Part shown: positions 50,539 through 61,463 of the stretch, piece by piece
How positions within the stretch are numbered: position 1 is the first letter of the stretch
Layout of the letters: the number at the start of each line of letters is the position of its first letter
NCBI GenBank assembly: GCA_964352385.1
Contig: CAYGRU010000004.1
Location: forward strand, 27,926 to 91,925
Origin: an uncultured Candidatus Planktophila sp.
GTDB lineage: Bacteria > Pseudomonadota > Alphaproteobacteria > Rhodobacterales > Rhodobacteraceae
DNA length: 64,000 bases
Direction of reading: 5' to 3'
Notes under the pieces: generated by a model
The model's input: the letters and a program-made list of their open reading frames with translations, nothing else
The model's database searches: none
What the model was told of the DNA's origin: nothing
Position numbers and translations under genes: made by a program

Positions 50539-51560
50539 GGGAGGCTCCCGTCTGGATGGTTGTGAGGCTGGTCCATGCCTCCGGCGGGGATATTTGAAGA
50601 AGAGAAGGGCGCGCGCAAGAGGCCTTCGCTGCATGCCCAGCGCGCCATATCCATCAGACCCGTCGCAAGGTCGATCCGGGGCGTTGGCAGGCCGGGCGGG
50701 TGCGGCAGGTCGGGGTCGGCGGACCAGTCCGGGTGCAGGATTTCGCGTGCCTTGCCTTTGGTGACCATCCCCGCGCCGCCGGTGATGCGGTTCAAGATGC
50801 TGCCTGCCGCGCCGAGCGCTCGCAAGGCGGGCGCGGGCAGGCGCAGCGGGCGCGGGGTATGGCCGAGCACCCGTGAGGCAGTCACTGTCAATTCGCGCCA
50901 AGTGTAACCGTCGCGGCGCTGGTCGGTCAGCTCCGTGATCATGCCGGAGGGGCCAGCACCAATCTGGCTCACGATCGCCGCCGCCGCGTCGCGCGCGTCG
51001 ATCATGGCGACCCGCGCCGCCGGTGCGTTCAGCATCACCTGAAATGGCCCATTGGCGAGTTTCAAGACCTTGAGGCTTTCGGTGTCATAAGCGCCATAGA
51101 TGGCAGCGGGGCGCAGGACCCGCCAGCGCGATCCGGCATCTGCTGCGTTCTTCAAGGCCAGTTCGGCGGCATGTTTCGAATGCGCATAGTCCGACAACAG
51201 GGGTGCGCGCGCGGCCATCGAGGAGACGAGCGTGAAATCCGCCCCTGGCGCGGCTTTGCGCCATGCCGCCGCGATGGCGGCGGTGCCGCCGACATTCGTG
51301 CGGATGAAGGTCGCGCGGTCGGGTGCGGTCACTGCGCCCGCAAGATGCAGGATCGCATCCGCGCCCGTGCACAAAGCCTCCAGCGCCGGGCTGTCGGCGA
51401 TGCCGCCGGGGATCAGTGCGATGGGGATGTCAGCCAGTTCGGGCAGATCGGGCGCGCTGCGCGTCAGCATCCTGACCTGCCATCCGGCATCGTGCAGGGC
51501 GCGGATCAGGTGGCGACCCAGAAAGCCGGTTCCGCCGGTCAGGGCGGCGATGCGCGTCAT
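50535..51560 (-). CDS. NAD(P)-dependent epimerase/dehydratase (extended SDR) family protein
   Basis: MTRIAALTGGTGFLGRHLIRAL (TGxxGxxG), catalytic YAHSK (YxxxK). ATG overlaps the upstream stop (ATGA). Confidence 0.8.
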   Translation of the reverse strand: MTRIAALTGGTGFLGRHLIRALHDAGWQVRMLTRSAPDLPELADIPIALIPGGIADSPALEALCTGADAILHLAGAVTAPDRATFIRTNVGGTAAIAAAWRKAAPGADFTLVSSMAARAPLLSDYAHSKHAAELALKNAADAGSRWRVLRPAAIYGAYDTESLKVLKLANGPFQVMLNAPAARVAMIDARDAAAAIVSQIGAGPSGMITELTDQRRDGYTWRELTVTASRVLGHTPRPLRLPAPALRALGAAGSILNRITGGAGMVTKGKAREILHPDWSADPDLPHPPGLPTPRIDLATGLMDMARWACSEGLLRAPFSSSNIPAGGMDQPHNHPDGSLP

Positions 51561-53329
51561 GTCGCCAGAGGGACAGGCCGCAATGCGGGGTCGAACTGCC
51601 CGTCGAGATACATCAGGCGGGCCTTGGCGCGGCTGAGCTTGCCGGAGGATGTGCGCGGCAGCTCGCCATTTTTCGCCAGCACCACCCGTGCCTCCACCCC
51701 GTGTGCGGTGCGCGCGATGGCGTGCACGTCCTCGCGAAACCCGGCGCGATCTTCGGCATCGCGCAGGCGACATTCGGCGACGATCACGACCTCTTCCTCG
51801 ATCCGCGCGCCGCTGTCGTCAGGGGTGACTGCGAACGCCGCGACGCCGCCCTCGCGCACGTGATCGACCTTGCGTTCCACCGTCCATTCGATGTCTTGCG
51901 GCCAGAGGTTGCGGCCATTGACGATCATCAGGTCCTTGGCGCGCCCGGTGATGACCACCTGCCCGCCGCGCAGAAACCCGAGATCGCCGGTATCGAGCCA
52001 GCCATCGCTGAGATGGTCCGCCGTGGCCTGCGGGTCGCCATAATATTCGCGCATCAGGCTCGGTCCGGCGGCGAAGATGCGCCCGACCTGCCCTTCCGCA
52101 AGCGCCGCGCCGGACGGGCCGCGGATTTCGATCCGGTGGCCGGGCAGGGCAGGGCCGCAATAGGCGAAATCACGGGCTGCACGACCATCGTTGGGGCCGA
52201 CGGCGCGTGCCTCCATCTCCCGCTCCAGCGCGTCGAGATCCAGCCGTTCGGTCACAAGGCCCTGACCGATGGGCGCAAAGGCGAGCGCGAGCGTCGTCTC
52301 TGCCATGCCATAGCTTGGGGTGAAGGCACCGGCGCGGAACCCCGCCTCGGCGAAGGTTTCGGCAAAGGCTTTGATGATCGGTGCCTTGATCATGTCGCCG
52401 CCGATCCCGGCGATGCGCCATGTCGACAGGTCCATCCGATCAGGCGCCTTGCCGCGCGTGCGCCGCTGCACGAGGTCATACCCGAAGGATGGCGCATAGG
52501 TGACGGTGGCGCGGTTGCGGTCGATCAGTTCCAGCCACAACAGCGGGCGGCGCACGAAATCCTTGGTGGACAGCAGGTCGGCAGAGAACTGATTCGCGAT
52601 CGGCGACAGAAAGCAGCCGACCAGCCCCATGTCGTGATAGAGCGGCAACCAGCTGACCCCCCGGTCCCCTGCCGCGAAATGCAGCCCATGTGCCGAGATC
52701 GCCGCAAGGTTCGCCATCATCGCACGATGCGTCACCGCCACGCCCTTCGGCGACCCGGTGGTGCCGGACGAGAATTGAAGATAGGCGAGCGCATCTGGGT
52801 CGGATGCGGGCAGGGGGATCGGCCCCGATGCCTCCGGCAGCGCTGCGAGGCGGCCGCAGAACGAAAGGTCGACACCGGTCATCGCCTCGCGCACCCAGGA
52901 TTCGTATTCCGCCGGGGCAAAAACAGCGCGGGCACCGGCGACGGCGACGATGCGCCGAAGCTGGTCATTATAAGCCTCCCGCGCGCCAAAGGCGACGGGC
53001 AGGGGCAGCGGCGCGGGCACCAGGCCGGCCAGCAACGCGCCGCAGAAGGCGCGCGCGAAATCCGGCTCCGTCTCGGCGACGATGGCGACCCGGTCGCCGG
53101 GGTTCAGCCCGGCAGCGCGCAGCCGTATCGCAACCGCACCGGCATCGGCGCGCAGCCGTGCATAGGTCAGCGTCTCCGTCACCTCGCCGCGTGCGTTGTA
53201 GAACGTGAATCCCGAATGGCCGGTCGCGGCATAGTTCATCGCCTCCACAAATGTTGTGAAGTCGGCGGGGCGGAAGGGCACCCCGCTGTCCGTCGGCGCG
53301 GCAGTTTCAAGATCAGTCTTCAGCGTCAT
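51557..53329 (-). CDS. fatty acyl-AMP ligase / AMP-dependent synthetase
   Basis: LQFSSGTTGSPKGV (A3 core), YGMAETT, GWLDTGDLG, GRAKDLMIVNGRN, PRTSSGKLSR (A10). The FAAL-type N-terminus (FTTFVEAMNYAA...) resembles FadD32-like ligases. Confidence 0.8.
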   Translation of the reverse strand: MTLKTDLETAAPTDSGVPFRPADFTTFVEAMNYAATGHSGFTFYNARGEVTETLTYARLRADAGAVAIRLRAAGLNPGDRVAIVAETEPDFARAFCGALLAGLVPAPLPLPVAFGAREAYNDQLRRIVAVAGARAVFAPAEYESWVREAMTGVDLSFCGRLAALPEASGPIPLPASDPDALAYLQFSSGTTGSPKGVAVTHRAMMANLAAISAHGLHFAAGDRGVSWLPLYHDMGLVGCFLSPIANQFSADLLSTKDFVRRPLLWLELIDRNRATVTYAPSFGYDLVQRRTRGKAPDRMDLSTWRIAGIGGDMIKAPIIKAFAETFAEAGFRAGAFTPSYGMAETTLALAFAPIGQGLVTERLDLDALEREMEARAVGPNDGRAARDFAYCGPALPGHRIEIRGPSGAALAEGQVGRIFAAGPSLMREYYGDPQATADHLSDGWLDTGDLGFLRGGQVVITGRAKDLMIVNGRNLWPQDIEWTVERKVDHVREGGVAAFAVTPDDSGARIEEEVVIVAECRLRDAEDRAGFREDVHAIARTAHGVEARVVLAKNGELPRTSSGKLSRAKARLMYLDGQFDPALRPVPLAT

Positions 53330-53546
53330 GACACTCTTATGGCTGGCGCGCACGGGTCGCGGCACACGAACTCGCGTTGGCGTCTAGCACTTTCATACCG
53401 GGGGCGGAACCCCCGGCGGATGCACACAATATGTCAGGTTCCGGCATGTGATGGTCGCTCGCGAAAAAGGCGGATTGATCTTTGCCGCGAAACTGTGCGC
53501 TGTCTGCCGACCGCAGGCAGGACACGCAGTCAGGGGAGCCAGTGAG

Positions 53547-55061
53547 ATGAGCCGTCCGAATATCCTAATCATCATGGTGGACCAGTTGAACGGCACGCTG
53601 TTCCCCGATGGCCCGGCGGACTGGCTCCATGCGCCGCATCTGAAGGCGCTGGCGGCGCGGTCGACCCGGTTTCAGAACGCCTATACCGCCTCGCCGCTCT
53701 GCGCGCCCGGTCGGGCCAGCTTCATGTCAGGCCAGTTGCCGTCGCGCACGCGGGTCTATGACAACGCCGCCGAATTCGCATCCGACATCCCGACCTATGC
53801 GCATCATCTGCGCCGCGCGGGGTATTACACCTGCCTGTCGGGCAAGATGCATTTCGTCGGGCCGGATCAGTTGCACGGGTTCGAGGAGCGGCTGACCACC
53901 GATGTCTATCCCGCCGATTTCGGCTGGACGCCGGATTACCGCAAGCCGGGCGAGCGGATCGACTGGTGGTATCACAACATGGGGTCGGTCACAGGCGCGG
54001 GGGTGGCGGAGATCACCAACCAGCTTGAATTCGATGACGAGGTGGCGGCCCATGCGGTGCAGAAGATCTATCAGCTTTCGCGCGGGCTGGAGGATCGGCC
54101 CTGGTCGCTGACCGTCAGCTTCACCCACCCGCATGACCCCTATGTGGCGCGGCGGAAATACTGGGACCTCTATGAGGATTGCGCGCATCTGGAGCCGACC
54201 GAGGCCCCCTATGCGTTTGAGGATTACGACGCCCATTCGCAGCGGATCATGCTGGCCAACGACTACACCGCCTTCGACATCACGCCCGACGATGTGCGCC
54301 GGTCGCGCCGCGCCTATTTCGCCAATATCTCCTATCTCGATGACAAGATCGGCGAGATCCTGCGGGTGCTGGCGGAGACGCGGCAGGTGGACAATACCAT
54401 CGTCGCCTTCGTGTCGGATCATGGCGACATGCTTGGGCAGAAGGGGCTGTGGTTCAAGATGAACTTCTATGACGGCTCCGCCCGCGTGCCGCTGATGATC
54501 GCCGCGCCGCAGATGAAGCCGGGGCTGGTGACCGCGCCGGTGTCCACCATCGACATGGCCCCGACGCTGGCCGATCTGGCCGGGGTGTCGATGGCGGAGG
54601 TGATGCCCTGGACCGATGGCGAAAGCCTTGTGCCACTGGGGCAGGGCGGGGCGCGGACCGCGCCCGTGGCGATGGAATACGCGGCGGAGGCATCGCAGGC
54701 CCCGCTGGTATCGCTGCGTTATGGCAAGTGGAAATACAACCGCTGCGCGCTGGACCCGGACCAGTTGTTCGACATGGAGGCGGACCCGCTGGAGGTCCGC
54801 AATCTGGCCGCCGACCCGGCGCATCAGGGGACGGTCACATCGCTGCGGGCCAAATCCGAGGCGCGATGGGACCTTGCGAAGTTCGACGCTGAAGTGCGCG
54901 AAAGCCAGGCGCGCCGCTGGGTGGTGTACGAGGCGCTGCGCAAGGGCGGCTATTACCCGTGGGATTTCCAGCCGCTGCAGAAGGCATCGGAGCGGTATAT
55001 GCGGAACCACATGGATTTGAACGTGCTGGAGGAGAGCAAGCGGTTTCCGAGGGGGGAGTGA
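53547..55061 (+). CDS. betC: choline-sulfatase
   Basis: Near-colinear by eye with Sinorhizobium meliloti BetC as I remember it: PNILIIMVDQLNG, SPLCAPGRASF (formylglycine C-x-P-x-R), FEERLTTDVYPADFGWTPDYRKPGERIDWWYH, native C-terminus ...ESKRFPRGE. Confidence 0.93.
   Translation: MSRPNILIIMVDQLNGTLFPDGPADWLHAPHLKALAARSTRFQNAYTASPLCAPGRASFMSGQLPSRTRVYDNAAEFASDIPTYAHHLRRAGYYTCLSGKMHFVGPDQLHGFEERLTTDVYPADFGWTPDYRKPGERIDWWYHNMGSVTGAGVAEITNQLEFDDEVAAHAVQKIYQLSRGLEDRPWSLTVSFTHPHDPYVARRKYWDLYEDCAHLEPTEAPYAFEDYDAHSQRIMLANDYTAFDITPDDVRRSRRAYFANISYLDDKIGEILRVLAETRQVDNTIVAFVSDHGDMLGQKGLWFKMNFYDGSARVPLMIAAPQMKPGLVTAPVSTIDMAPTLADLAGVSMAEVMPWTDGESLVPLGQGGARTAPVAMEYAAEASQAPLVSLRYGKWKYNRCALDPDQLFDMEADPLEVRNLAADPAHQGTVTSLRAKSEARWDLAKFDAEVRESQARRWVVYEALRKGGYYPWDFQPLQKASERYMRNHMDLNVLEESKRFPRGE
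55049..55059. repeat. left arm of 11-bp inverted repeat GAGGGGGGAGT flanking the low-GC islet
   Basis: Overlaps the last betC codons and stop. Its reverse complement ACTCCCCCCTC occurs at 57133-57143. Confidence 0.6.
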
Positions 55062-55213
55062 GAGGGGAGATATAGATTTGAAGAGGCGGATCAGAGACTG
55101 CGTTTGCTTGAGATGGTTTTGGCGGGAAGCCGTCATTCGCTGGGCAAGCTGATTAGCGGTGGTAATGTGCAAGGAAGTTGACACGCTCCTAATCGGCTAA
55201 AGTGGTGCACTGG

Positions 55214-55837
55214 CTATTTTGAGTAAGGTGCAAGCCTCAAGCGTTCATCAATTTTGTATGCCATCTCATACATCAGATCATATACTGCATCTTCAAACCC
55301 TCTATAATAAGCAATCTCTGCAATGAGATCCCGCTTTCCATGCGCGATATTATTGCGCCTGGTGACTAATGTAGAAATCTTTAATCGATGCGTATTTATT
55401 GCGTCCAGCGTAATATCCGCCTTTTCAAGGAGATCCTCAAGAACGTTGGGCCAAAGGTTAGATTTTGTATCAACTTCCGGAAAGTCTGGGCTGGGATTGT
55501 AGAACGCGACTTGGAATTTTTCTAGCTCGCTAAGAAGTGGCTCCGCCTGAAGGCTGCGCAATGTCTTTAGCTTTTTTTCCAAAGCGAATAGGCGTGTCTT
55601 AACTGGGAGTGAACCGCAATTATCAACTGCCAACTTAGCGTAATCATAAAATACCGTGAGCGCAGTTTTCGAGAATCCCTCGTAGTGAGCGTATAGAATA
55701 GCCCATGAAACCCTCAATAAAACAGATTTTTGACTGTCACTTACATCCGCCCTTGACAAAAGGAGTTTCAAAGAGCCGAGCTCCATCTCACGCCAGTTTA
55801 GGTCGTCTGTTATGATATCAAGGGGTGATAGAGTCAC
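55214..55837 (-). CDS. HEPN-domain protein (predicted RNase; resembles the MAE_28990/RiboL-PSP-type HEPN proteins associated with DUF262)
   Basis: All-helical 207-213 aa ORF with TLVTRRNNIAHGKRD, i.e. the R-N-x-x-x-H HEPN motif (codons at 55340-55357). Preferred start is GTG 55837 (AGGA 8 nt upstream); alternatives are TTG 55855 and ATG 55786. Overlaps the 3' end of the DUF262 gene. Confidence 0.75.
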   Translation of the reverse strand: MTLSPLDIITDDLNWREMELGSLKLLLSRADVSDSQKSVLLRVSWAILYAHYEGFSKTALTVFYDYAKLAVDNCGSLPVKTRLFALEKKLKTLRSLQAEPLLSELEKFQVAFYNPSPDFPEVDTKSNLWPNVLEDLLEKADITLDAINTHRLKISTLVTRRNNIAHGKRDLIAEIAYYRGFEDAVYDLMYEMAYKIDERLRLAPYSK

Positions 55838-56930
55838 AGAGATAATCCTGCACAACTTGGATTCTTGAATTCAATTTCGGGATTGTGTTTGCACCTGGTC
55901 CAGTTGCGTTTTTGAAATCACTACTTTCAAACGCACTCACTAACCGCGAAATAAGAATATCTTTTTCCACAGCCTCTAATTTATCGTACTGTTCTACGAA
56001 CGCCACGCAAACCGCTTCATAATAGGCAGGCGCTAAACGACCAGTTGCTTCCCCATGTGTGTTGAACCGGGTGAATGCTTGATCGCCAAGTTTTTCGGAT
56101 ATGATCCGAAAGGTTTTATTGAAAAGTGCTTCCATGCTTTCGTGATCGAAAGCGTGATCTTCGAACAGGACGCCCTCCATATAACCATCAAGCCACTCTT
56201 CGATGTTTCCCTTGAACATGTCCCGGAAATTGACCAACGCGAAGAATCGAAGCACTAGTTCCTCATCTGCACGCTGCTCTTTCATACTGTCGGGAAGGCG
56301 AGCAGTCGCCAAAACAAAAGGCGGAAACTGTGCGAGTTTTTGGAGAAGTTCGTAGAATTTTGCCCCACCATCGATCATTCGCGATGAACAGTTACGTATC
56401 TCTTGAGCGGAAAGCAGTGAGCCACCTGTGTTGAGTCGCTTAAACAATTCATATTTTACAAATGCGTCACCAGATTTATTGATGATTGTAGCTCGGATAG
56501 GTGTTCTTTTTATTTTTAGGCGCGTCACGGTATCAATAGTGTTTAAAGTCTTTCCGTTCAATTCTTTGATGAAATCACATCCCTCAAGAACCAATTCGGG
56601 CTGGTCTATCGCTTCATGGTCCAAAAATTGAAGAACAGAACTCGTTCTTTGTAGGCCGTCAATGAGTTCAAGAATTCCTTTATCATTTTCAATAAGAAAT
56701 ATGGGGGGGATCGGAAGTCCCATTACTATCGACTCTATTAGTCGCGAGCGTTGCTCATTACTCCATCTAAAGAGCCGTTGATATTCTGGGCGTATAACGA
56801 TTTCTTTATCTCGGTGAAGATTAAGGAGTTCGCCAAAAGAAAAATCCACCGCCGTCGTGCGTATTTGGCGATCATGAGCATTCGATTCCGTATCATTCAC
56901 GAGCGAAAAATCTCCAAAAATCCCTAGCAA
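55818..56930 (-). CDS. DUF262 domain protein (ParB/sulfiredoxin-fold, GmrSD N-terminal-like) without fused DUF1524/HNH nuclease
   Basis: IRPEYQRLFRWSNEQRSRLIESIVMGLPIPPIFL and LIDGLQRT (variant of DGQQR, codons 56646-56660). The C-terminal about 230 aa are helical with no H-N-H-type motif. Only non-ATG starts are available (TTG 56930 or GTG 56900). Confidence 0.8.
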   Translation of the reverse strand: MLGIFGDFSLVNDTESNAHDRQIRTTAVDFSFGELLNLHRDKEIVIRPEYQRLFRWSNEQRSRLIESIVMGLPIPPIFLIENDKGILELIDGLQRTSSVLQFLDHEAIDQPELVLEGCDFIKELNGKTLNTIDTVTRLKIKRTPIRATIINKSGDAFVKYELFKRLNTGGSLLSAQEIRNCSSRMIDGGAKFYELLQKLAQFPPFVLATARLPDSMKEQRADEELVLRFFALVNFRDMFKGNIEEWLDGYMEGVLFEDHAFDHESMEALFNKTFRIISEKLGDQAFTRFNTHGEATGRLAPAYYEAVCVAFVEQYDKLEAVEKDILISRLVSAFESSDFKNATGPGANTIPKLNSRIQVVQDYLCDSITP

Positions 56931-57132
56931 GGCTACCCAATTTGTGACCAGAAGCGCAACTGATTAGTTGAACCTCTACACCAGGCATCCCGAGTGCGTT
57001 GACGCGATAGTCGGGAATCCTGTTATAGAGTGCCCTTCTCAATCATTTATTTGGTCCTGATATTGCGTCAAAGTTATCGCTGAATCGCAGGAACAACAAG
57101 TATAATCAAGCTTAGCTTTTAGTCGATAGGGG

Positions 57133-57143
57133 ACTCCCCCCTC
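57133..57143. repeat. right arm of 11-bp inverted repeat (ACTCCCCCCTC)
   Basis: Reverse complement of 55049-55059. Overlaps the betI stop codon (57142-57144). Confidence 0.6.
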
Positions 57144-57711
57144 ACACCAACACCCCCACAACCCGCCGCGCCTCTGCCCGCACCACCTCCGCGTCAACCA
57201 CCCCTCCCTGCGCCGCAGCCAGCCACACCCCATCCATATAGGCCTGCAAGACCGCCCGCGCGGTTTCACGCCGCTCCTCCGGCAGCAGCGCCCTCAACTC
57301 CGCCCGAAAATGGCTCGTCACCCGTGCCAGATTGATGCGGTGGAGCCTTGCGAGGCGGTCCGAGTAGGGGGCGTTGGCCCAGAACTGCATCCAGACATTG
57401 CATTGCGCGGCGGTGAACAGGCGGTCGTCGAAATTCGCCTCCACCACCGCGAACAGCCGGTCCCTCGGGGTTTTCGCGGCGCGATACCGGTCGCGCATCG
57501 CGGCGCGCAGCAGGGTCAGCAGGTGGCGCATCGTCGCCTCCAGCAACCTCTCCTTCGATCCGAAGTAATAGGTGATGCTGGCGGTGGAGGCGCCGGCCTC
57601 CACCGCGATTTCGGCCATCGTCACAGCGGCATAGCCGCGCTTGTGGATCGCCGATATGGTGGCGGCGATCAGTTCTTCATGCCGGATATCGCGAATGCGT
57701 TTGCGGGTCAT
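57142..57711 (-). CDS. betI: TetR-family choline-responsive repressor BetI
   Basis: MTRKRIRDIRHEELIAATISAIHKRGYAAVTMAEIAVEAGASTASITYYFGSKERLLEATMRHL, NFDD...VWMQFWA...RLHRIN parallels E. coli BetI as I remember it (NFDE...AWLAFWA...RLQQV). Located in the bet locus. Confidence 0.78.
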   Translation of the reverse strand: MTRKRIRDIRHEELIAATISAIHKRGYAAVTMAEIAVEAGASTASITYYFGSKERLLEATMRHLLTLLRAAMRDRYRAAKTPRDRLFAVVEANFDDRLFTAAQCNVWMQFWANAPYSDRLARLHRINLARVTSHFRAELRALLPEERRETARAVLQAYMDGVWLAAAQGGVVDAEVVRAEARRVVGVLV

Positions 57712-57771
57712 GGGCGGCGGTTTCCTCTGCCGCAAACATGGCATTGCTGAATGCAAAAATCAAAACTTGTA

Positions 57772-57798
57772 TGACGATACAGGATTTTCCTGTCGTCA
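57772..57798. promoter_or_regulatory. imperfect palindrome in betI / transporter divergent promoter region (candidate operator)
   Basis: TGACGATACAGGA-TTT-TCCTGTCGTCA (arms identical except for a 2-nt bulge), 78 nt upstream of the transporter ATG. Confidence 0.3.
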
Positions 57799-57875
57799 CA
57801 GCGAATTTGTGTTAAGAAAGGGTCACAATCCATAAGGCCGATAGGGCCGTATCTTCCACAACAGGAGGGGAGTGC

Positions 57876-59084
57876 ATGTTAACCTATATTCTTTCAGCAG
57901 GGGTGTTGCTGGCATTCGCGCTGGTGATCTTCTGCGTCGTCAAATGGTGGAATGTCCGCTGCATCGGGGTCACCCCGGTGCCGTTGTTCACCTTCATCGC
58001 GATTCTGTTCACCTCCGGCCTCGACGTGGGGCTGATCATGTTCCCGCTGGGCGAATTCCCGACCTATGCGGATACCGCCGCCGCGCCGGAATACGGGTTC
58101 ACCAACCCGCTGGCCATCGAGTTCGGGTTCTGGGGATTCCTGATCTGGGCATTCTACTTCCTGACCGCGTTCTATTTCTGCGTGATCGAGCCGAAGGTGA
58201 AATTCTTTGACATTCCGGTGGTGAAGATCGTCAACAACATCGTCATCATCGGCACCTGTGCGTTCACCGCCAGCCTGTTCCTGATCTATCTGCCGTTCTA
58301 CATCCCCGAAATCGGCGATGGGGAAAGCATCGTGACGACATTCTATGTGATCGTGTTCGTGGTGATCCTCGCGGCGGCCTATTCGTCGACCGACATCAAG
58401 TATGTGAAGATCCTGTCCATCGGCTCCACCTTCCTGTTCGGGGCGCTGATTGTCGGGCTGTGGATCTATGCAGGCATGGGCATCGGTGAATTCGGCGCAA
58501 CCATCGCGAATGTCGGCGGGTATTTCGCCAACCTTCACAAGTTCGTCCTGCCGATGAACGACTATCACGAATTCTATCTGTTCTGGTGGTTCGCCTGGTC
58601 GATCATGATCGGTCAGTTCACCTCGCGTTTCGTCGGCGGGCTGACGACGCAGCAATTGCTGGCGGCGTTGCTGGTTATCCCGTCCATTCCGCTCGCGATC
58701 TGGTTTTCGGTGCTGTATTTCTATCATTCCAACGGCATCGACACGACCGGCATCATCAATATGGCGATGATCGTGGTGGGCGTGACCTTCGTCATCAACT
58801 CGCTCGACAGTCTGATCCGGCTTTACTCCGACAACCTGTCGATCACGGTCGAGCGGTTCGGCAAGGCGGCCTATGTCGGCGGCAATGTCGCGGTGCTTTT
58901 CGGTCTGACGCTGCTGTTCCAAAGCCAGTGGTTGCAGATTCAGTGGATCGGCGCGGTCGTGGTGGGCATCTACTTCTCGTGCCTCATCTTCATCATCGTG
59001 ACCAAGCGGCGCGAAGTGATGGCGATCAAGGGATCACCTGCGGATCGGGTGCTCGATTTCCACAAGATCGAGACCGTCCATTGA
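57876..59084 (+). CDS. short BCCT-related transporter (putative choline/betaine carrier)
   Basis: 402 aa, about 10-11 TM. FYLFWWFAWSIMIGQFTSRFVGGLT aligns residue-for-residue with the BCCT TM8 signature [34 protein letters not shown] RBS. About 50 % GC in one 100-nt count. Confidence 0.7.
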   Translation: MLTYILSAGVLLAFALVIFCVVKWWNVRCIGVTPVPLFTFIAILFTSGLDVGLIMFPLGEFPTYADTAAAPEYGFTNPLAIEFGFWGFLIWAFYFLTAFYFCVIEPKVKFFDIPVVKIVNNIVIIGTCAFTASLFLIYLPFYIPEIGDGESIVTTFYVIVFVVILAAAYSSTDIKYVKILSIGSTFLFGALIVGLWIYAGMGIGEFGATIANVGGYFANLHKFVLPMNDYHEFYLFWWFAWSIMIGQFTSRFVGGLTTQQLLAALLVIPSIPLAIWFSVLYFYHSNGIDTTGIINMAMIVVGVTFVINSLDSLIRLYSDNLSITVERFGKAAYVGGNVAVLFGLTLLFQSQWLQIQWIGAVVVGIYFSCLIFIIVTKRREVMAIKGSPADRVLDFHKIETVH

Positions 59085-59157
59085 CCGGGGCGTAAGGTTC
59101 CGGAACGTGGGGGCTCCGGCGATGACCGGGGCCCCCGCTGCATACAGGGAATGAAGA

Positions 59158-59802
59158 ATGATCACCGTCTATGGCCGCAGCACGTCGTCGAATGTTCAGA
59201 TCGTCATGTGGGCAATCGGCGAATTGGGGCTGGAATACCAGCGCCACGATATCGGCCATTCGCATGGCGGCAACGACACCCCCGCTTACCTCGCGATGAA
59301 CCCGATGGGGCTGGTGCCGACCATCCGGGACGGCGATCTGGTGATGTGGGAAAGCGGCGCAATCCTGCGCTATCTCGCGGCGCGCTATGGTGACGACCGG
59401 TTCTGGCCGCGCGACCCTGCGATCCGGGGGCCGTTGGATATGTGGGCGGAATGGTGCAAGACCGAATTCGGGCCGACCTTCAACTATCGGGTGTTCGTGC
59501 CGATGGTCCGCGTCGCGCCGTCGCGGCAGGACAAGGCAGCCATCGCCAAGGCCATCGAGGCGACGAAGCCGCTGGCGCGGATGCTGGACCGGCGGATCGG
59601 TGCGGGGCCGTGGCTGGCGGGGGATGATTTCACCTTTGCGGACATCCTGACCGGCAATCTGCTTTATCGCTATTTCGAGCATGATTTCGACAAGACGCGC
59701 ACGCCGAACCTGCGCGCCTATTACGACAGGCTGCGCGGTCGCCCCGCCTATCTGGAACATAATTGCGTGTCATACGAGCCGTTGAGGGTCAGAGACGCAT
59801 GA
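59158..59802 (+). CDS. glutathione S-transferase family protein
   Basis: [27 protein letters not shown]...[27 protein letters not shown] (thioredoxin-like N-domain). Confidence 0.85.
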
Positions 59803-61463
59803 TGCAGGCCGATTATGTGATCGTCGGCTCCGGCTCCGCCGGATCGGCGCTGGCGGCGCGGCTGTCGGAGGATGGCCAGCATTCGGTGCTGGTGCTGGAA
59901 TATGGCGGCACCGATATGGGGCCGTTCATCCAGATGCCCGCCGCGCTGTCCTATCCGATGAACATGAAGCGGTATGATTGGGGCTTTCAGTCGGAGCCGG
60001 AACCGCATCTGGGCGGGCGGCGGCTCGCCTGTCCGCGCGGCAAGGTGATCGGCGGGTCGTCGTCGATCAACGGAATGGTCTATGTGCGCGGCCATGCGTG
60101 CGATTTCGACCATTGGGCGGATCAGGGGGCCGATGGCTGGGCTTATGCCGATGTGCTGCCGTATTTCGAGCGGATGGAAAGCTGGCATTCCGGTGGCCAC
60201 GGCGGCGACGAGGATTGGCGCGGCCTGTCCGGCCCGCTGCATGTAACGCGCGGGCCACGCCGGAACCCGCTGTTTCAGGCATTCGTCGATGCCGGACGGC
60301 AGGCGGGGTTCGAGCTGACCGACGATTACAACGGGGAAAAGCAGGAAGGCTTCGGCCCGATGGAGCAGACCGTATGGCAGGGTCGCCGCTGGTCCGCTGC
60401 CAATGCCTATCTGAAACCGGCACTGAGGCGGCAGAACCTCGATGTCGTCAAATGCTTCGCGCGCCGCGTCGTCATCGAAGAGGGCCGCGCTGTTGGCGTT
60501 GAGGTGGAGCGGGGCGGCAAGATCGAGGTGATCCGTGCCCGGCGCGAGGTGATCCTCGCCGCATCGTCAATCAATTCGCCAAAGCTGTTATTGCTGTCGG
60601 GCATTGGCCCCGGGGCGGAGCTTGCGGCACACGGGATCGACGTTGTCGCGGATCGGGGCGGCGTGGGCCGCAATTTGCAGGATCATCTGGAGCTGTATAT
60701 CCAGCAGGCCTGCATCCAGCCGATCACCCTGTTCAAGCATTGGAACCTGATCTCCAAAGGTCTGATCGGGGCACAATGGCTGTTCACCAAGACCGGACTC
60801 GGCGCATCGAACCAGTTTGAAAGCGCGGCGTTCCTGCGATCCGCGCCCGGTGTCGAATACCCCGACATCCAGTATCATTTCCTGCCGATGGCGGTGCGCT
60901 ATGATGGCAAGGCAGCGGCGGAGGGGCACGGGTTTCAGGCGCATGTCGGGCCGATGCGATCACCCTCGCGCGGGGTGGTCAGATTGCGGAGCGCCGATCC
61001 GAAGGACGACCCGAAGATCGTCTTCAACTACATGTCCGAAGAACAGGACTGGGTCGATTTCCGGCATTGTATCCGCCTGACACGGGCCATTTTCGGGCAG
61101 GCTGCCTTTGACCCCTATCGCGGGGCCGAAATCCAGCCCGGCGCGGATGTGCAGACGGATGACGAACTTGACGGGTTCATCCGCGACCATGCCGAAAGCG
61201 CCTATCACCCTTGCGGCACCGCCCGGATGGGCCGCGTCGACGATCCGCAGGCGGTGGTCGATGCGGAATGCCGGGTGATCGGCGTTGACGGCCTGCGGCT
61301 GGCCGACAGCTCGATCTTTCCGCGCATTACCAATGGCAACCTGAACGCGCCCTCGATTATGGTCGGTGAAAAGGCGGCGGATCACATCCTCGGCAAGACG
61401 CCGTTGCCGCCATCGAACAAGCAGCCCTGGATCAACCCGAGGTGGGAGGTTTCGGACCGGTGA
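59799..61463 (+). CDS. betA: choline dehydrogenase (GMC oxidoreductase)
   Basis: [25 protein letters not shown] motif, [30 protein letters not shown] overlaps the GST stop (ATGA). Confidence 0.9.

Follow-up and report, generated by a model that had tools for sequence, protein, structure and literature searches.

The window considered here is a 64,000-nucleotide (nt) stretch of contig CAYGRU010000004.1 from an uncultured Candidatus Planktophila sp., and the element of interest within it is a small AT-rich islet in a betaine locus, bounded by the stop codons of the genes betC (55061) and betI (57142). The islet contains two overlapping genes, both on the minus strand and referred to here as gene A and gene B, as seen from the listing of open reading frames (ORFs). 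Gene A encodes a DUF262 protein and gene B a HEPN protein, and the pair is an intact cassette of a known, experimentally validated architectural class, represented by the PD-T4-2 anti-phage system of Escherichia coli. The copy in the window is itself unexceptional. The islet and its two flanking genes are made up as follows.

53547-55061, plus strand: betC, left flank, a choline sulfatase with Pfam matches to Sulfatase and Choline_sulf_C
55062..55213, minus strand: trailer, 152 nt from the stop codon of gene B to that of betC, with no recognisable feature
55214..55837, minus strand: gene B, a HEPN protein of 207 amino acids (aa) of the MAE_28990/RiboL-PSP type, the predicted RNase effector
55818..55837, minus strand: overlap of genes A and B, 20 nt, with the stop codon of A at 55820-55818 and the GTG start of B at 55837
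55818..56900, minus strand: gene A, a 360-aa protein with a DUF262/ParB-like NTPase domain and an all-helical ParBDB-like C-terminal domain, the predicted sensor
56901..57141, minus strand: leader, 241 nt, AT-rich, with GGAG about 9 nt before the GTG of gene A
57126..57099 and 57071..57042, minus strand: sigma-70-like promoter matches within the leader, as consensus matches only
57142-57711, minus strand: betI, right flank, a BetI-type TetR repressor with Pfam matches to TetR_N and TetR_C_6

The GC content of the islet (55062-57141) is 0.445, compared with 0.635 for the whole window. In a 300-nt profile the value is 0.62-0.72 to the left of 55061, falls to 0.39-0.49 inside (from about 55100 to 57050) and returns to 0.61-0.67 to the right of 57142. 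An earlier reading made from the sequence only had described this dip, and both the drop and its sharp borders are borne out, although the inside value lies slightly above the 38-42 % given there. Its description of two overlapping, co-oriented ORFs on the minus strand is likewise accurate, but the leader measures 241 nt and not about 210 nt (the trailer is 152 nt). No integrase, transposase or methylase is encoded within the islet, a tRNA scan found none, an Rfam search returned nothing over noise and no additional ORF is a credible candidate, in agreement with the gene content that had been claimed. Inspection of the leader and trailer revealed no antitoxin RNA, no small ORF and no tRNA attachment site, and the nucleotide sequence of both differs from that of the closest relatives, with no conservation. 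The 20-nt overlap between the two genes suggests that their translation is coupled.

Gene A starts with the GTG codon at 56900, giving 360 aa, and not with the TTG at 56930; its homologues are 353-360 aa in length, and an identical Logan contig is called with 360 aa. The stored gene call on the window's own contig gives gene A as 301 aa, a product that lacks the 59 N-terminal residues and with them the QRxxxW motif. The sole domain match in Pfam is to GmrSD_N/DUF262 (2.8e-26, residues 34-181 of the 370-aa ORF), which upholds the original assignment of this protein. Its homologues (22 close and 32 diverse) all retain QRLFRW, DGLQR and FKRLN as invariant motifs, D91 and R95 of the DGLQR motif (370-aa numbering) are invariant across the family, and the catalytic-pocket motifs are unchanged over an identity range of 29-100 %. 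An AlphaFold model (pLDDT 78.7), built from an alignment (A1) that is less diverse than another (A3), shows a ParB-like alpha/beta N-terminal domain followed by an all-helical C-terminal domain. The best Foldseek matches of this model among folds in the Protein Data Bank (PDB) are BrxU (7p9k), SspE (7drs) and the ParB/Noc/sulfiredoxin folds.

In GmrSD, BrxU and SspE, DUF1524 cuts and DUF262 is the NTPase and sensor. Gene A has no Pfam match to GmrSD_C/DUF1524 (PF07510), no nuclease fold is found among its PDB fold matches, and an alignment of 32 diverse members shows no conserved His or Asp in the C-terminal half. Because it has neither a nuclease fold nor such conserved residues in this half, it is not a disguised GmrSD. 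A cryptic nuclease was considered and ruled out by the Pfam result, the all-helical C-terminal half, the fold matches and the missing His or Asp. The absence of a DUF1524/HNH nuclease, as first read from the sequence, is thus supported by domain, fold and conservation checks alike.

Gene B starts with the GTG codon at 55837, a choice supported by its homologues, and encodes 207 aa. It matches the Pfam family HEPN_MAE_28990 (PF18737) over its full length at 8.8e-50 and HEPN_RiboL-PSP (PF18735) at 3e-25. Its R-x4-H motif, R161-N-N-I-A-H166, shows no variation among 27 close and 34 diverse homologues, and the family-wide form of the motif is R-N-x-I-A-H-G. The HEPN assignment therefore stands on the strength of PF18737 and the invariant motif, and the residues singled out earlier, D91 and R95 in gene A and R167 and H172 in gene B (213-aa numbering), are the correct ones, being invariant across the two families. 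The AlphaFold2 model of gene B is all-helical with a pLDDT of 93. A weak match to the PADLOC Csx1 profile (0.0045) covers the motif region. Searched with a profile, 1.84 billion cluster representatives yielded 1,879 clusters of the gene B family (50 % identity) at E<=1e-3, nearly all of them stand-alone proteins of 200-230 aa. NCBIfam holds no model for either protein, and PHROG families match both.

The two genes are found together with great regularity. Alignment of gene B homologues was used to draw 91 loci, with 30-77 % identity to gene B, from genome, metagenome and IMG/VR collections; co-occurrence was measured on the metagenome and IMG/VR loci, the scan of genome contigs having given one locus. 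An ORF of the gene A family lies directly upstream, on the same strand, in 83 of the 83 HEPN-seeded loci that have at least about 220 bp of upstream sequence, and the distance from the end of A to the start of B in related loci ranges from -16 to +41 nt. The remaining eight HEPN-seeded loci, in which gene A is not seen, are at contig ends with at most 149 bp upstream. For the reverse test, 41 IMG/VR loci were seeded by alignment of gene A (29-82 % identity), 39 of them with downstream sequence. A HEPN gene of the gene B family follows directly in 38 of these 39 viral loci, and in the last the downstream ORF is a RiboL-PSP-HEPN (PF18735, Pfam 2e-15). Each gene is thus obligately linked to the other, and the co-occurrence of the two families that had been proposed is seen in 83/83 and 39/39 loci. 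In four metagenome loci (L022, L025, L037 and L054) only the C-terminal portion of the DUF262 profile is matched upstream, although ample sequence is available there, and these copies of gene A may be frameshifted or divergent at the N-terminus.

The pair is widely distributed, on chromosomes, plasmids and P2-like prophages of more than one phylum. Its alphaproteobacterial hosts include Sagittula, Sphingobium, Novosphingobium, Afifella, Phaeobacter, Agrobacterium and Phyllobacterium, and it also occurs in Xanthomonas and Syntrophotalea. Plasmid copies are found in Roseomonas, Corynebacterium, Leptospira and Psychrobacter, and P2-like phages and prophages of E. coli and Klebsiella carry the pair as cargo. 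Within IMG/VR, 10 HEPN-seeded and 41 A-seeded loci contain it. In E. coli it is rare: 7 of 5,426 complete genomes have it, within P2 prophages, with the portal gene on one side and the replication genes on the other; RefSeq labels these copies 'DUF262 domain-containing protein' and 'MAE_28990/MAE_18760 family HEPN-like nuclease'. The 93 ORFs that immediately neighbor the pair in close and moderate relatives include three integrases, restriction enzymes, an IS transposase, phage structural genes and housekeeping genes, and no third gene is conserved among them, so that in these relatives the pair looks like a free-standing cassette. In this respect the expectation that it would be typical of defense islands did not hold, as the pair is a lone cassette amid unrelated genes both in the window and in most close relatives. 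A distant prophage branch is organized differently, with N6/N4 DNA methylases accounting for 15 of 55 neighbors and usually lying directly upstream. The methylase-bearing IMG/VR prophage loci are L096-L106, L114 and L120, and a convergent cytosine methyltransferase adjoins the pair in the E. coli P2 copies (L131 and L145). These methylase-linked loci look like three-gene variants that resemble restriction-modification systems; no methylase was seen near the pair in the window's own clade.

The composition of the islet recurs wherever the pair is found. Relative to its flanks the pair is poorer in GC in 57 of 58 loci (L001-L129), with a mean difference of 12.8 points, and in 35 high-GC hosts its mean GC content is 0.457 compared with 0.614. 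Copies that have diverged by about 28 % at the nucleotide level all remain near 0.45 GC in hosts of 0.6-0.65, and nucleotide similarity of the islet to its closest relatives (about 72 %) ends at the ends of the ORFs. A foreign origin of the pair is well supported. Low GC content is a standing property of the module, and it therefore does not date the transfer. Accordingly, the claim of recent horizontal transfer is kept for the foreign and horizontally mobile nature of the pair but not for 'recent', with 57 of 58 loci AT-rich and GC content not serving as a clock. Continual transfer, selection for AT-richness or silencing could each account for the AT-richness of the module.

The association of these families has been known for some time. 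Anantharaman et al. 2013 (Biol Direct) tabulated the MAE_28990 and RiboL-PSP HEPN families as 'in operon with ParB', called the partner a 'ParB nuclease' and mentioned linked DNA methylases. This is a computational description of the same gene association as in the window, with methylases accompanying the distant prophage branch only, and NCBI names homologues 'MAE_28990/MAE_18760 family HEPN-like nuclease' beside 'DUF262 domain-containing protein'. A defense role was established with PD-T4-2 of E. coli ECOR65, which was found by functional selection, described as 'DUF262, HEPN' and validated (Vassallo et al. 2022, Nat Microbiol, PMC9519451). Its deletion in native ECOR65 restores plaquing by T4, and it was also validated in K-12 (PMC9519451). 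In the same study HHpred assigned protein 2A to PF03235 and protein 2B to PF18735 (97.8 %) and PF18737 (96.9 %). Later reviews place PD-T4-2 under DUF262 and PF18735 HEPN, without DUF1524, and a 2026 preprint includes it among the HEPN antiviral systems. The sequence-only reading had held that no defense system with this split architecture was characterized; this is wrong in view of the validation of PD-T4-2 in 2022, and the gene association had been tabulated in 2013.

The likeness between PD-T4-2 and the islet lies in a two-gene operon in which a DUF262 protein without DUF1524 is followed by a small HEPN protein, with the same three Pfam families represented in both. The differences are that the two ORFs span 1,540 bp in PD-T4-2 and 1,687 bp in the window, and that PD-T4-2B resembles the Pfam models only distantly (HHpred E about 1e-8), gene B being in contrast a canonical member of PF18737 (8.8e-50). 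In ECOR65 the system consists of RCO39066.1 and a partner without annotation. At the level of profiles, gene A matches PADLOC PD-T4-2_A at 3.2e-39 (133 bits, positions 41-355 of 363) and PADLOC NsnA, from the Menshen system, at 1.1e-65 (220 bits, positions 40-379 of 385), and all 32 diverse members of the gene A family match both models.

Menshen (NsnA-NsnB-NsnC; Millman et al. 2022; Li et al. 2025 NAR) provides a second point of reference. Gene A has the ParB-DUF262 plus ParBDB architecture of NsnA, which has been proposed as a DNA sensor, an architecture ascribed to PD-T4-2A as well, and the logic of a sensor joined to an RNase effector, as proposed for that system, matches the pair in the window. 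In contrast to Menshen, the islet contains neither the ABC/OLD-type ATPase NsnB nor the inPIN-effector NsnC, and the HEPN gene directly follows the sensor. PADLOC v2 would call neither PD-T4-2 nor Menshen here, because there is no match to PD-T4-2_B and no NsnB or NsnC. With GmrSD, BrxU and SspE the gene A protein shares an N-terminal DUF262 NTP-binding domain with a DGxQR pocket, followed by a helical middle domain; those proteins, however, are single polypeptides of 580-770 aa that end in a DUF1524 His-Me DNase, whereas gene A is without DUF1524 and its effector is predicted to be a separate RNase. PD-lambda-5 (Vassallo et al. 2022, 'ParB/HEPN, methyltransferase') is likewise a validated defense system with a ParB fold and a putative HEPN, but in that system they are fused in a single ParBc-type protein with weak DUF262 and HEPN signals, and a D12 methyltransferase partner is required.

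Taken with the domain content, the linkage and the mobility of the pair, these comparisons make it probable that the islet is an anti-phage cassette of the PD-T4-2 type, self-contained with its two genes and acquired by horizontal transfer, with a mechanism along the following lines. The A and B proteins would associate, and the HEPN RNase would be kept inactive in their complex. The DUF262/ParBDB module would then detect a feature of phage DNA, such as modified bases or an intermediate of replication or injection; this step is ascribed to gene A because DUF262 acts in this way in GmrSD, BrxU and SspE, and it thus stands by analogy. Binding or hydrolysis of NTP would turn the A-B complex on, and a HEPN dimer would cut tRNA, rRNA or mRNA, so that translation and phage production stop, probably at the cost of the infected cell. 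We infer complex formation, trigger, RNA target and the outcome for the cell from related systems; protection against phage has been demonstrated by others for a system of the same architecture. The design that had been put forward, a DUF262 sensor with a separately encoded HEPN RNase effector, is a reasonable one. The safest label for the islet is a PD-T4-2-type DUF262 plus HEPN system, whose sensor is homologous at the profile level and whose HEPN partner is of unproven orthology.

Several observations weigh against this assignment. The PADLOC PD-T4-2_B profile gives no match to gene B at E<=1, nor to any of 34 diverse family members at E<=1e-3. Gene A scores higher on NsnA than on PD-T4-2_A, so that orthology with PD-T4-2, a system compared here through profiles and descriptions, is unproven. 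The model of gene B has no Foldseek match in the PDB at E<0.3 and gene B has no PDB sequence-profile match; since no solved structure is matched by either fold or sequence, the predicted HEPN identity rests on a curated Pfam profile and the motif. The phage-protection experiments come from PD-T4-2 and not from the window's clade, and the neighbors of the window copy are betaine-pathway genes and not a defense island. The sequence-only reading had allowed that the pair might turn out to match a named, characterized system, and PD-T4-2 largely is that system; the match is qualified by the fact that PADLOC v2 recognizes gene A only and that the searchable literature contains no account of how PD-T4-2 works, what triggers it or which RNA it targets. 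A direct search by blastn with the window pair and three related pairs against the 5,426 complete E. coli genomes returned either nothing or the P2 variants of 1.76-1.88 kb, and not the 1,540-bp PD-T4-2.

It is also possible, though doubtful, that the MAE_28990 clade is distinct from PD-T4-2: an NsnA-type, Menshen-like DNA sensor that has no NsnB and is coupled directly to a HEPN RNase, with its own trigger and RNA target, and that is missed by defense-finder models although common in Alphaproteobacteria and prophages.

Other explanations of the pair deserve consideration, all of them less well supported than a sensor coupled to a defensive RNase. The first is a toxin-antitoxin or addiction module composed of a constitutive RNase toxin (HEPN) and a protein antitoxin (DUF262); such a pair would mainly stabilize the mobile elements on which it travels, with defense being incidental or absent. 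HEPN RNases are common as toxins of this kind in the literature, and the strict linkage, the overlapping genes and small operon, the carriage on plasmids and prophages, and the lone insert in the window with no defense neighbors would all suit such a module. The gene A protein, however, is a two-domain protein of 360 aa, of NTP- and DNA-binding type and with invariant motifs, which goes far beyond the needs of a neutralizing antitoxin. Neither MNT, the partner in HEPN-MNT modules, nor any other known HEPN antitoxin adjoins gene B, whose partner is DUF262, and PD-T4-2, of the same architecture, protects its native host from T4. We regard this explanation as unlikely, although the two roles are not mutually exclusive. 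Targeting of DNA in the manner of restriction, with gene A nicking or cutting DNA, the HEPN protein in an accessory or regulatory role and the methylase-linked relatives resembling restriction-modification systems, is suggested by the 'ParB nuclease' label and linked DNA methylases of Anantharaman et al. 2013, by the 15 of 55 methylase neighbors in the distant prophage branch and the cytosine methyltransferase beside the E. coli P2 copies, and by the action of most known DUF262 systems on DNA. Yet cutting in GmrSD, BrxU and SspE is performed by DUF1524 and not by DUF262, the window's clade has no nearby methylase or conserved third gene, and the family-wide invariance of the HEPN R-x4-H motif argues for a catalytic role and not for a scaffold; a restriction-like role is consequently quite improbable.

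Finally, the islet might be a non-functional relic, two decaying foreign genes with no current role, as its odd location at a break in gene order, the lack of conservation in leader and trailer, and the truncation of gene A to 301 aa in the gene call of the window's record could be taken to indicate. Both ORFs are nevertheless full-length, with 83 % and 77 % identity to their nearest homologues, all family-invariant residues are intact, the coupling overlap is preserved and there are promoter-like sites in the leader, which together make decay very hard to credit.

The practical value of the finding is modest: a widespread DUF262-HEPN pair of defense genes gains an example from a marine member of the Paracoccaceae. 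Because the HEPN partner escapes the PADLOC v2 profiles throughout the family, surveys probably under-count the system. The class, and not this window in particular, is a reasonable target for mechanistic work on what a DUF262 protein senses when it has no DNase and on which RNAs the HEPN protein cuts.

The site occupied by the islet can be compared with the betaine loci of related organisms (L134-L137, L142 and L143). The host is a Paracoccaceae-like bacterium, and its nearest BetC relatives, at 89 % identity, are from Pikeienuella metagenome-assembled genomes, within a range of 86-89 % among the relatives compared. In Pikeienuella the gene order is AMP-ligase(-)/betI(-)/betC(+)/GST/betA, and in L142 it is AMP-ligase(-)/betI(-)/BCCT-like(+)/betC(+)/GST/betA. 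The window (51557-61463) reads AMP-ligase(-)/betC(+)/[B,A](-)/betI(-)/BCCT-like(+)/GST/betA. Thus the relatives have betI, with or without the BCCT-like gene, upstream of betC, whereas in the window the betI-BCCT block is downstream of betC and the islet is at the new junction. Since the relatives examined, none of which has the islet, also differ in gene order, the islet sits at a synteny breakpoint and not at a simple conserved intergenic site. The comparison with close relatives that had been suggested as a way to reveal an empty site did not do so: no islet-free betC/betI junction was seen at the strain level, exact look-ups of BetC and BetI gave no match, and the relatives without the islet have other gene orders. 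One other contig contains the islet, and it is 100 % identical to the window.

The islet is bracketed by an 11-nt perfect inverted repeat, the only perfect 11-mer one in 54900-57400, with the following arms.

55049..55059, plus strand: left arm, GAGGGGGGAGT, in the last codons of betC (P-R-G-E-stop), native coding sequence
57133..57143, plus strand: right arm, ACTCCCCCCTC, overlapping the stop codon of betI (57142-57144)

The PRGE terminus that holds the left arm is conserved across all relatives examined, in keeping with the statement that betC has kept its native C-terminus. None of 2,000 shuffles contained such a repeat at both borders, so that its placement is not expected by chance. It could represent the separated halves of a (bidirectional) terminator hairpin, or a scar of rearrangement or recombination. 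Bracketing by such a repeat was also considered as a general signature of cassette insertion and was rejected, as other loci with the cassette are without it. The AT-richness of the module in every host and the presence of the 11-nt inverted repeat without a nearby recombinase could together hint, in a reading as doubtful as that of a separate MAE_28990 system, at an unrecognized way for minimal defense cassettes to move or to stay silent.

Beyond betI lies the BCCT-like gene (57876-59084, plus strand), whose product is a membrane protein of 402 aa that matches BCCT weakly (4.7e-08) and whose GC content, 0.56, is well below that of its neighbors. The possibility that it belongs to a larger foreign segment was rejected on account of its L142 homologue, which shares 73 % aa identity and has a GC content of 0.57. 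As the L142 gene is equally low in GC, this composition is intrinsic to the gene, and betI and the BCCT-like gene are native to the locus.

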